The position numbers and the translations under genes are program-made. The notes beneath the pieces are model-generated. The model was not told where the DNA came from, did no database searches, and was given only the letters and a program-made list of their open reading frames with translations. Shown here piece by piece: positions 20,228-27,706 of a stretch of DNA of 64,000 nucleotides; within the stretch, counting starts at the first letter, position 1, and every line of letters begins with the position of its first letter. Location of the stretch: assembly GCF_046105845.1 (NCBI RefSeq), contig NZ_CP151004.1. One strand, given 5' to 3'. This stretch comes from Escherichia coli (GTDB lineage: Bacteria; Pseudomonadota; Gammaproteobacteria; Enterobacterales; Enterobacteriaceae).

Positions 20228-21556
20228 TTAGCGGCCTTTTGCCAGATATTGCTCCATCTCTTCTTCCGGCACCATTCCACCTCCCGTCGCCCACACCAGA
20301 TGAGTGGCATTACGCAGTTGTTCTGCGCTGAAACCGTGCATCTGTTGGTAACTTACTGATGCACACACGCGCTGAGGTCCGGCCATACCCGCCAGTGCCG
20401 AAGGTTCAAGACGAATACCTTCTTCCTGCGCCAGCCAGCCAAGCATGTCATACATGGATTGATCGCTAAGGGTATAGAAGCCATCCAGTAGACGCTCCAT
20501 TGCCCGCCCGACAAAGCCTGATGCGCGACCAACTGCAAGGCCATCCGCTGCGGTAAGGTTGTCGATACCAATATCCTGAACAGAAATCTGATCGTGTAAT
20601 CCTGTATGGACGCCTAACAGCATACAAGGGGAGTGCGTTGGTTCGGCAAAAAAGCAGTGAACATGATCGCCAAATGCCAGTTTAAGCCCGAATGCGACGC
20701 CACCAGGACCACCGCCAACACCACACGGCAGATAGACAAACAGAGGGTTATCAGCATCGACAATACGACCTTGCTCGGCAAATTGCGCTTTAAGACGCTG
20801 GCCTGCGACGGAATACCCAAGGAACAACGTGCGGGAATTTTCGTCATCAATAAAGAAACAGTTCGGGTCAGACTGCGCTGCTTTACGTCCTTCCTCGACG
20901 GCAACACCATAATCTTGCTCATATTCCACGACCGTAACGCCATGGCTGCGCAGTTTCGCTTTTTTCCATGCCCGGGCATCAGCAGACATATGCACTGTCA
21001 CCTTAAAGCCAATGCGGGCGCTCATTATGCCGATTGATAACCCCAGATTTCCGGTTGAGCCCACAGCAATGCTGTATTGACTAAAGAACTGTTTAAACTC
21101 CGGAGACAGTAGTTTGCTGTAGTCATCTTCAGGCGTCAGCAACCCCGCTTCCAGAGCCAGTTTTTCTGCGTGTGCCAGGACTTCATAAATCCCGCCGCGT
21201 GCTTTTATGGAGCCGGAAATGGGCAAATGGCTATCTTTTTTCAGTAACAGTTGTCCGCTGATCGGTTGTTGATATTCCTTTTCCAGCCGTTTTTGCATAG
21301 CCGGAATGGCAACCAGTTCTGATTCAATAATCCCCCCAGTGGCAGCAGTTTCAGGAAATGCTTTTGCCAGATAGGGTGCAAAACGAGATAAGCGCGCATG
21401 GGCGTCCTGAACATCCTGTTCGGTCAGGCCAACATAAGGTAAACCTTCAGCCAATGAGGTCGTGCCAGGATTAAACCAGGTGGTTTCTTTAAGAGCAACC
21501 AGATCCTTTACCAACGGATACTGGGCGATGAGCGAGTTCATTTTAGCGTTTTCCAT
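20228..21556 (-). CDS. dsdA: D-serine ammonia-lyase (D-serine dehydratase), PLP-dependent
   Basis: 442-aa ORF containing SGSIKARGG (PLP-lysine motif). Confidence 0.92.
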
Positions 21557-25671: not shown

Positions 25672-26919
25672 ATGGCACTGAATATTCCATTCAGAAATGC
25701 GTACTATCGTTTTGCATCCAGTTACTCATTTCTCTTTTTTATTTCCTGGTCGCTGTGGTGGTCGTTATACGCTATTTGGCTGAAAGGACATCTAGGATTA
25801 ACAGGGACTGAATTAGGTACACTTTATTCGGTCAACCAGTTTACCAGCATTCTATTTATGATGTTCTACGGCATCGTTCAGGATAAACTCGGTCTGAAGA
25901 AACCGCTCATCTGGTGTATGAGTTTCATTCTGGTCTTGACCGGACCGTTTATGATTTACGTTTATGAACCGTTACTGCAAAGCAATTTTTCTGTAGGTCT
26001 AATTCTGGGGGCGCTCTTTTTTGGCCTGGGGTATCTGGCGGGATGCGGTTTGCTTGACAGCTTCACTGAAAAAATGGCGCGAAATTTTCATTTCGAATAT
26101 GGAACAGCGCGCGCCTGGGGATCTTTTGGCTATGCTATTGGCGCGTTCTTTGCCGGTATATTTTTTAGTATCAGTCCCCATATCAACTTCTGGTTGGTCT
26201 CGCTATTTGGCGCTGTATTTATGATGATCAACATGCGTTTTAAAGATAAGGATCACCAGTGCATAGCGGCGGATGCGGGAGGGGTAAAAAAAGAGGATTT
26301 TATCGCAGTTTTCAAGGATCGAAACTTCTGGGTTTTTGTCATATTTATTGTGGGGACGTGGTCTTTCTATAACATTTTTGATCAACAACTCTTTCCTGTC
26401 TTTTATGCAGGTTTATTCGAATCACACGATGTAGGAACGCGCCTGTATGGTTATCTCAACTCATTCCAGGTGGTACTCGAAGCGCTGTGCATGGCGATTA
26501 TTCCTTTCTTTGTGAATCGGGTAGGGCCAAAAAATGCATTACTTATCGGTGTTGTGATTATGGCGTTGCGTATCCTTTCCTGCGCGCTGTTCGTTAACCC
26601 CTGGATTATTTCATTAGTGAAGCTGTTACATGCCATTGAGGTTCCACTTTGTGTCATATCCGTCTTCAAATACAGCGTGGCAAACTTTGATAAGCGCCTG
26701 TCGTCGACGATCTTTCTGATTGGTTTTCAAATTGCCAGTTCGCTTGGGATTGTGCTGCTTTCAACGCCGACTGGGATACTCTTTGACCACGCAGGCTACC
26801 AGACAGTTTTCTTCGCAATTTCGGGTATTGTCTGCCTGATGTTGCTATTTGGCATTTTCTTCTTGAGTAAAAAACGCGAGCAAATAGTTATGGAAACGCC
26901 TGTACCTTCAGCAATATAG
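25672..26919 (+). CDS. cscB: sucrose:H+ symporter (MFS, LacY family)
   Basis: 415-aa 12-TM ORF, LacY-like. Confidence 0.9.
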   Translation: MALNIPFRNAYYRFASSYSFLFFISWSLWWSLYAIWLKGHLGLTGTELGTLYSVNQFTSILFMMFYGIVQDKLGLKKPLIWCMSFILVLTGPFMIYVYEPLLQSNFSVGLILGALFFGLGYLAGCGLLDSFTEKMARNFHFEYGTARAWGSFGYAIGAFFAGIFFSISPHINFWLVSLFGAVFMMINMRFKDKDHQCIAADAGGVKKEDFIAVFKDRNFWVFVIFIVGTWSFYNIFDQQLFPVFYAGLFESHDVGTRLYGYLNSFQVVLEALCMAIIPFFVNRVGPKNALLIGVVIMALRILSCALFVNPWIISLVKLLHAIEVPLCVISVFKYSVANFDKRLSSTIFLIGFQIASSLGIVLLSTPTGILFDHAGYQTVFFAISGIVCLMLLFGIFFLSKKREQIVMETPVPSAI

Positions 26920-27360
26920 ACGTAAACTTTTTCCGGTTGTTGTCGATATCTCCATATCCCTCAACCGGAAAATAGTAATACAAAAATGCTTAGCCCAACT
27001 AATAATCACCTAATCCAAACGCCTCATTCATGTTCTGGTACAGTCGCTCAAATGTACTCCGGATACGCGGTTCGCTGATTTCCAGGACATTGTCGTCATT
27101 CAGCGACCTGTCCCGAGTATCACGGGCCTGCGAATTCATCAAGGAATGCATTGCAGAGTGAAGTATCGAGTCACGCCATATTTCGCTATCAGGATTCTGT
27201 ATGATGGTTACATCGCCCGGCCCAGGGCTGTTTAGTCATCAGCGCTTTCTGACAGTGCTGAGATTTCAACCTGTTGCAGTAAAAATGAGTAGATATAGGG
27301 CAAGTGTGCTGCCAAACCCATCTTTTACGGGGTGAAGGTAGATATTGTTAGAAGGGTATC

Positions 27361-27375
27361 TGGTGTCCCCTGCAG
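27361..27375 (-). repeat. attR core: duplicated 3' end of tRNA-Arg (argW)
   Basis: TGGTGTCCCCTGCAG is the reverse complement of the argW acceptor 3' end CTGCAGGGGACACCA (recalled tRNA sequence). Confidence 0.7.
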
Positions 27376-27448
27376 ACATCTACTTGACGCGGCAGGGGAT
27401 TGATTGGAATGGTGTTTTTTGGATGTGAGAAATATTTTACCCGCTATT

Positions 27449-27649
27449 TTACCCATTGGCGCGGCTTAAGAGCTTATTTTTGAATTCACAATGGTCACGA
27501 TATAACCATCTTGCTCGCCCGTGGATAACTTTAGCTTTTGGCAGGTCGCCGGACTTAATCCGGTCATAGATGAAGGTTTTACCGAAGCCAGTATCGGCCA
27601 TGATGAATTTCAAATCAACCAGTGAATCAGGTTGTAGTTCGTGTTGCAT
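27449..27649 (-). CDS. torI: excisionase / recombination directionality factor (TorI family, winged helix)
   Basis: 66-aa product MQHELQPDSLVDLKFIMADTGFGKTFIYDRIKSGDLPKAKVIHGRARWLYRDHCEFKNKLLSRANG matches recalled K-12 KplE1 TorI; the ORF track gives a longer 27449..27664 version. Confidence 0.85.
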   Translation of the reverse strand: MQHELQPDSLVDLKFIMADTGFGKTFIYDRIKSGDLPKAKVIHGRARWLYRDHCEFKNKLLSRANG

Positions 27650-27706
27650 GAGTGCTATCTCCAAATAGGGAATCGAACCTGCAAATCAGGCAATAAAAAA
27701 CCGCCA

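Follow-up and report, generated by a model that had tools for sequence, protein, structure and literature searches.

The argW-dsdCXA / cscRAKB region of Escherichia coli is a well-known variable locus, as presented in PMC11251922, PMC3032704 and PMC4366372, which cite Jahreis 2002 and Moritz & Welch 2006. The DNA analysed here, a 64-kb stretch that we refer to as the window, has the layout of this locus (dsdA, truncated dsdX, cscR, cscA, cscK, cscB and argW/att) and shares with it the mutual exclusion of the csc and dsdC arrangements. It adds to these accounts at the argW end. Whereas they place csc beside a variable argW region and make no mention of a DUF4942 fragment, we found such a fragment in the roughly 440 bp (26920-27360) that extend from the stop codon of the sucrose gene cscB to the 3′-end core of argW. 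In our assessment, this segment is very probably a functionless neutral scar, in which positions 27008-27294 represent an internally deleted DUF4942 fragment, perhaps the last trace of an island at argW.

Described relatives of the fragment are the DUF4942 genes of CP4-type islands, such as WP_001290180.1, L0010 of O157:H7 and orf56 of the Shigella SRL pathogenicity island. The last of these, similar to L0010, is located at the distal end of its island, after YeeU, YeeV, YeeW and DUF957 (PMC6980539). In the locus of WP_001290180.1 (L012), the order is DUF932, an antirestriction gene, YeeS, YeeT, CbeA, CbtA, DUF5983 and DUF957, then the intact DUF4942 gene and then another integrase; in a further locus (L011), an intact DUF4942 gene is preceded by RadC, YeeU and CbtA. 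Among plasmids, over 4600 records contain more distant homologues, and 4279 of these are conjugative. The usual home of DUF4942 is the distal end of CP4-type integrative islands at tRNA genes, together with conjugative plasmids. As to function, DUF4942 had no match in NCBIfam, PADLOC or PDB sequences, and its PHROG matches were confined to two function-unknown families and the N-terminal part of a family labelled ‘DNA methyltransferase’. The remnant resembles the island genes in sequence (51% amino-acid and 73-75% nucleotide identity, in two collinear blocks) and, like them, stands beside a tRNA gene and reads away from it. Unlike them, it lacks both ends and about 55 internal nucleotides, and its pieces are in different frames. 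It also lacks the island partners (CbeA/CbtA, DUF5983, DUF957) and an integrase.

On the prophage side, the system to compare with is the attR of K-12 CPS-53/KplE1, with its argW pseudo-copy pawZ. The window shares with it the 15-nt core, a near-identical arm and TorI. On the bacterial side, however, K-12 has 95 bp of unrelated sequence followed by dsdC, whereas the bacterial arm of attR in the window is the DUF4942 remnant followed by cscB.

The junction between the csc genes and argW

The features of the segment and its borders are listed in Table 1. The initial annotation had described the segment as the junction between the csc genes and the argW attachment site, designated attR. The coordinates of the cscB stop codon and of the core confirm the first part of this description, and the sequence beyond the core confirms the second. 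The 15-nt core is the sole copy in the window, which contains no tRNA gene. When the whole 64 kb was searched with the 21-nt argW 3′-end sequence, allowing up to 3 mismatches, only 27361-27381 was found and no second repeat. In prophage-free genomes, an annotated tRNA-Arg has the core bases at its 3′ end. The first prophage gene past the core is the excisionase gene torI (27449-27649, minus strand), the product of which is 100% identical to K-12 TorI (66/66 residues), and the prophage arm beside the core is near-identical to that in the attR of K-12 CPS-53/KplE1. Taken together, the argW 3′ end, torI on the prophage side and the near-identical arm identify the site as the attR of a KplE1/CPS-53-like prophage.

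Table 1. Features at the csc-argW junction (window coordinates)
Feature	Position	Strand	Description
cscB	25672-26919	+	415 codons; directly precedes the segment
Spacer beside the cscB stop	26920-27007		88 bp without DUF4942 homology
Hairpin	26929-26972	+	11-nt perfect arms TTTTCCGGTTG / CAACCGGAAAA
50-codon ATG ORF	26999-27151	-	Open frame reaches 27235 (78 codons)
DUF4942 pseudogene, distal piece	27008-27216	-	Corresponds to nt 244-453 (codons 82-151) of the 288-codon paralogue
DUF4942 pseudogene, proximal piece	27207-27294	-	Corresponds to nt 112-199 (codons 38-67); other frame, in-frame stop
argW-adjacent piece	27295-27360		66 bp, not collinear DUF4942 sequence
Attachment core	27361-27375	-	Last 15 nt of tRNA-Arg(CCU) argW, reverse complement TGGTGTCCCCTGCAG

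Several other observations concern the attachment site itself. At 27669-27684, just upstream of torI, 16 nt (GGAATCGAACCTGCAA) are identical to the argW bases that come directly after the 15-nt core in the tRNA (with a 1-nt overlap), so that argW sequence, interrupted by a torI-containing stretch of about 293 bp, continues exactly on the far side of that stretch. In 100 shuffles, such a match arose by chance 0 times. K-12 CPS-53 has this 16-mer upstream of torI as well (L004:12276-12291); it might go back to an attP/argW homology that was once longer. A tandem direct repeat (27433-27454; two copies of TATTTTACCC with 12-nt spacing) in the prophage arm, between the core and the torI end, could be a candidate protein-binding site of the attR arm. 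In E. coli O157:H7 M1300706002 (L005:1941-1960), one nucleotide is missing from the argW-derived core next to the remnant (TGGTGT-CCCTGCAG), and this core is followed by a tRNA-like GAATCGA and then by an element encoding a ‘recombinase family protein’, not by a torI-type prophage. Many ‘viral’ contigs of argW prophages in IMG/VR (L016-L095) end exactly at the cscB start codon; these overshoot attR by about 1.7 kb and include the host remnant and the entire cscB gene.

The DUF4942 pseudogene fragment

Within the segment, the initial annotation had noted a 55-codon ORF on the minus strand, ending in ...RSTFERLYQNMNEAFGLGDY*, and had proposed that this might be a gene relic, namely a 3′ fragment of a displaced gene, in otherwise non-coding DNA. 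An ORF with this ending does exist, but it has 50 codons when counted from its ATG and 78 from stop to stop. The statement that the segment contains no full gene is borne out by the ORF listing. The label ‘non-coding’ is apt in so far as no intact gene is present, but about two thirds of the segment is pseudogene, which continues upstream of the ORF to 27294 in another frame. The suspicion of a gene relic was well founded, as a homology search returned coding homologues rather than none.

In RefSeq, the ORF is entered as WP_001316510.1, a ‘DUF4942 domain-containing protein’ without a pseudogene flag. The 50-aa product matches the Pfam family DUF4942 (PF13708) with 26.1 bits at profile positions 18-62, and the 78-codon frame matches it with 38.3 bits (E 1.5e-9) at positions 5-62 of 190; both scores exceed the gathering threshold of 25 bits. 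ORFs of 30-60 codons are common nearby, with dozens in all frames, and the size of this one is unremarkable, but its homology exceeds chance. It is the abundance of such ORFs, together with a Pfam score of the 50-aa product only 1 bit above the cut-off, that might lead one to see in it a chance ORF of ordinary intergenic DNA with a spurious family label. We consider the probability of this negligible, given the score of the longer frame, the exhaustive phmmer search against 1.8 billion representative proteins, in which the ORF aligned with residues 84-151 of a 261-aa DUF4942 protein (E 2.8e-10, 53% identity), and the alignment with an intact E. coli DUF4942 gene, in which 73% of nucleotides are identical over 202 nt and a second collinear block is present.

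To describe the anatomy of the fragment, we used as a reference the intact E. coli paralogue WP_001290180.1 (288 aa, 867 nt; L012:6890-7756). In blastn alignments, a proximal block (window 27294-27207) corresponds to nt 112-199 of the gene, with 67 of 89 positions identical (75%, E 1e-11), and a distal block (window 27216-27016) corresponds to nt 244-445, with 147 of 202 identical (73%, E 5e-29). At the protein level, tblastn aligned the distal piece with the paralogue over 76 residues (51% identity, E 2.9e-20), while the proximal piece, which contains an in-frame stop, was detected with an E-value of 0.002 in a different frame. Between the two blocks the alignment offset changes from 174 to 229, a net internal loss of about 55 nt (some 18 codons). 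The intact gene has an imperfect repeat, GCGATGAAAC / GCAATGAAAG, and the junction coincides with 10 nt of the fragment that can be aligned with either copy; a deletion at this short repeat has put the two pieces of the fragment in different frames. Homology extends to 27294 on the argW side and to about 27008-27016 on the cscB side. Relative to the intact gene, the first ~37 codons, the last ~137 and ~18 inside have been lost, leaving about 290 of the 867 nt. The 50-codon ORF is whatever the decayed sequence chances to leave open, and its tail, ‘GLGDY*’, is, judging by where the alignment stops, read-through into unrelated DNA.

These alignments bear directly on the proposed 3′ end. Intact DUF4942 proteins (277-288 aa) match the full profile, 1-190, at residues 83-276, whereas the ORF at 26999-27151 offers neither the complete domain nor an intact reading frame of about 280 aa. 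What it covers is the first third of the domain, which lies in mid-gene, and so it does not represent a 3′ end. It is true that its stop codon lies only 79 nt from cscB and that its coding homology is genuine, as expected for the end of a gene displaced or truncated upon arrival of the csc island or the prophage. However, the homology covers positions 5-62 of the 190-position profile and codons 82-151 of the 288 in the paralogue, the true 3′ half, ~137 codons long, is missing, and the last residues, GLGDY*, fall past the end of detectable homology. Nor does ‘displaced’ fit, because the DUF4942 family travels on mobile islands and plasmids and is not a resident chromosomal gene of the argW locus. 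A 3′ end is thus highly improbable. The sequence at 26999-27151 is instead a family-derived pseudogene, not a member protein of DUF4942.

We also looked for a full-length progenitor of the fragment. A word search of 5.8 billion proteins gave short orthologous fragments only, and the best match in the exhaustive search of 1.8 billion representatives had 53% identity. On plasmids, identity reached at most 53% at the amino-acid and 75% at the nucleotide level; complete E. coli genomes contained paralogues of at most ~74%, and IMG/VR contained orthologous copies only. A scan of the GTDB species representatives for exact 25-mers of the remnant returned no match. The remnant is more diverged than any sampled full-length member, with at most ~53% amino-acid identity.

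Variation, linkage to csc and possible functions

The remnant is present in 2644 of 5426 complete E. coli genomes, as a single copy in each and always on the chromosome; the cscB 3′ end (last 420 nt) is present in 2645 of the 5426. A more sensitive search of the complete E. coli genomes revealed no extra copies with at least 90% identity, only the paralogous intact DUF4942 genes at ~72-74%. At every remnant-bearing locus that we opened, cscB lies beside the remnant, and in five prophage-free genomes the last base of the remnant directly adjoins the annotated tRNA-Arg. In K-12, which is of the dsdC type, the remnant is absent and unrelated sequence follows straight after the core. Given this strict linkage to csc, the position flush against argW and the unrelated K-12 flank, the remnant is part of the csc haplotype, whose difference from the dsdC haplotype reaches all the way to the final argW base.

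A few individual loci stand out, two of which are variants with later erosion of the remnant. In ETEC L7_E1373 (L003:6078-8284), only 77 bp of it are left, the rest having been replaced by ISEc46 (TnpB and TnpA) and an Arm-domain fragment of an integrase. Strain BKQ37E (L013:2261-3144) has a rearranged csc locus that retains about 65 bp of the DUF4942 fragment; there, the csc genes adjoin an Hha/YmoA-family gene, IS1 and an amino-acid antiporter gene, with no argW in the 6-kb locus. In strain CFSAN061763, the genome closest to the window (remnant 99.8% identical), dsdA is annotated as frameshifted; dsdA of the window (ORF 20228-21556, 442 aa) looks intact.

Sequence variation was assessed in 74 copies (the window, nine RefSeq loci and 64 IMG/VR prophage calls reaching into cscB), which represent 30 haplotypes. 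In the frame of the fragment, there are 10, 15 and 13 variable sites at codon positions 1, 2 and 3, compared with 22, 6 and 73 in cscB. The whole remnant has a pairwise diversity of 0.033, on a par with that of cscB third positions (0.026) and above that of cscB positions 1+2 (0.005), and it has 14 indel columns where cscB has none. A premature TGA at 27059-27061, where the window has CGG, interrupts 51 of the 74 copies (14 of the 30 haplotypes); one more copy has a different premature stop and another a 1-nt frameshift. The 78-codon frame is open in 21 of the 74, the window included. Neither the spread over codon positions nor the frequency of the TGA indicates purifying selection on the coding frame; the pattern is that of a pseudogene in neutral decay. 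All 74 copies have the deletion junction and the 3′ end in common, which means that the truncations go back to a single event that preceded the diversification of the csc haplotype.

The CDS annotation in RefSeq implies a different reading, in which a functional mini DUF4942, a small protein, would be made from the 50-codon ORF. The ORF does have a protein accession, many genomes carry an ordinary CDS call with no pseudogene flag, the frame is open in the window as in the other copies just mentioned, and the Pfam gathering score is passed. Yet the annotation itself is inconsistent: the lengths given are 35 (from coordinates 1832-1936), 50, 60, 73 and 79 aa, the product is elsewhere ‘hypothetical’, and in 13 of the 29 full-length rows listed the ORF has no annotation. 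Only one third of the domain is represented, no promoter-like site was found, and variable sites are distributed evenly over codon positions. The stop codons in most copies refute a conserved small-protein function, and we give the small-protein reading hardly any credence.

If the coding frame is not maintained, the DNA might still be kept for a non-coding function, with the hairpin acting as a terminator or stabiliser and/or the argW-proximal part serving as an arm for phage integrases. The hairpin speaks for this. It begins 10 nt past the cscB stop codon and has a predicted folding energy of -19.5 kcal/mol (z -4.2), with 0 of 200 shuffles as stable. Among the 74 copies, its arms contain 1 variable site in 22, compared with 13 in 88 for the whole spacer. 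This lower variability hints at some constraint, and the hairpin may end or stabilise the cscB transcript, as far as folding predictions can tell. However, the sequence that follows the stem is A-rich on both strands. As there is no U-tract on either strand, the hairpin is not a canonical intrinsic terminator; it was not reported by the terminator scan, and no Rfam match or sigma-70-like promoter was found in 26700-27700. Besides, invariant arms among closely related copies prove little.

The case for an integrase arm starts from the use of the argW core by several different elements. Against it stands the 66-bp piece beside the core, which is the most polymorphic part of the remnant: 20 of its 66 sites are variable, about twice the rate in the rest (~15%), and it has indels as well. 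This is the opposite of what a conserved recognition arm would look like, and recurrent integration or excision of phages, or recombination, at argW may be the source of the high polymorphism. Neither flanking piece could be traced to DUF4942. Compared with the intact paralogue, the 88-bp spacer showed 19-32% identity in a register scan and 27% in the collinear register, and the 66-bp piece showed 26% in the collinear register, all of which correspond to random similarity. For the spacer, blastn-short gave orthologous copies only (L003, L013); the 66-bp piece is present at the orthologous site in 2630 genomes, with no paralogues found, and is unrelated to the K-12 flank after the core. A retained non-coding function would explain no more than ~110 of the 441 bases, and the DUF4942 homology not at all; we consider it unlikely, though much less so than a functional protein. 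Under the preferred reading of a neutral scar, the only plausible present roles would be passive ones: a spacer between cscB and argW, a hairpin after cscB and a bacterial arm beside the prophage attachment core.

Origin at argW and significance

The family context raises the question of how a piece of a DUF4942 gene came to lie at argW. Its location has two attributes of an island relic. The remnant is immediately 3′ of the tRNA gene in the five prophage-free genomes and beside the argW core in the window, and the fragment is derived from a typical island gene oriented away from the tRNA, with its 5′ end facing argW. The family, the position flush against the tRNA gene and the orientation all fit the distal part of a CP4-type island at argW. 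Two other attributes are absent. Between the core and the fragment there are only 66 bp without a homologue, which leaves no integrase beside the tRNA, and the 64-kb window contains no distal direct repeat of the tRNA 3′ end. The Arm-domain integrase fragment of L003 belongs to a different arrangement, one without the remnant. From argW to dsdX, neither an integrase nor a second argW repeat was found, nor any other island gene, and the DNA at the dsdX-cscR junction has no paralogues and no mobile relic. With no integrase, second repeat or island gene left, it is family context and orientation that point to a former island.

Such a history could have proceeded as follows. A CP4-type island would once have integrated at argW and would later have been gutted by deletions, the fragment being its last trace. 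What remains would be the argW-side end of a block with cscBKAR, and this block would have replaced dsdC together with the 5′ part of dsdX. One version of this scenario, which we put forward tentatively and regard as less likely than not, is that the fragment is the last piece of a CP4-type island at argW that carried cscRAKB as distal cargo. This version is compatible with the near-perfect linkage (2644 vs 2645 genomes), with the orientation and with a haplotype difference that extends up to the last base of argW. If true, it would mean that the csc ‘island’ is a decapitated tRNA-integrated mobile element and not the product of simple recombinational replacement. Alternatively, an island may already have been present at argW when dsdC and the 5′ portion of dsdX gave way to csc.

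Overall, the remnant is an ordinary genomic scar that opens no new mechanism. The argW csc/dsd variable locus was already known, as was the DUF4942 label of the ORF in RefSeq. What is new is modest: the ‘protein’ is an internal pseudogene fragment, longer than the ORF, and neither a 3′ end nor a real CDS. For annotation, the 50-aa ‘DUF4942 domain-containing protein’ of RefSeq should accordingly be corrected to a pseudogene fragment, broken by a stop codon in most strains. For the study of the locus, the common deletion junction and truncation points make the fragment a fixed molecular marker of the csc haplotype. It also provides a modest clue that the sucrose genes may have come to the argW hotspot with, or beside, a CP4-type island.
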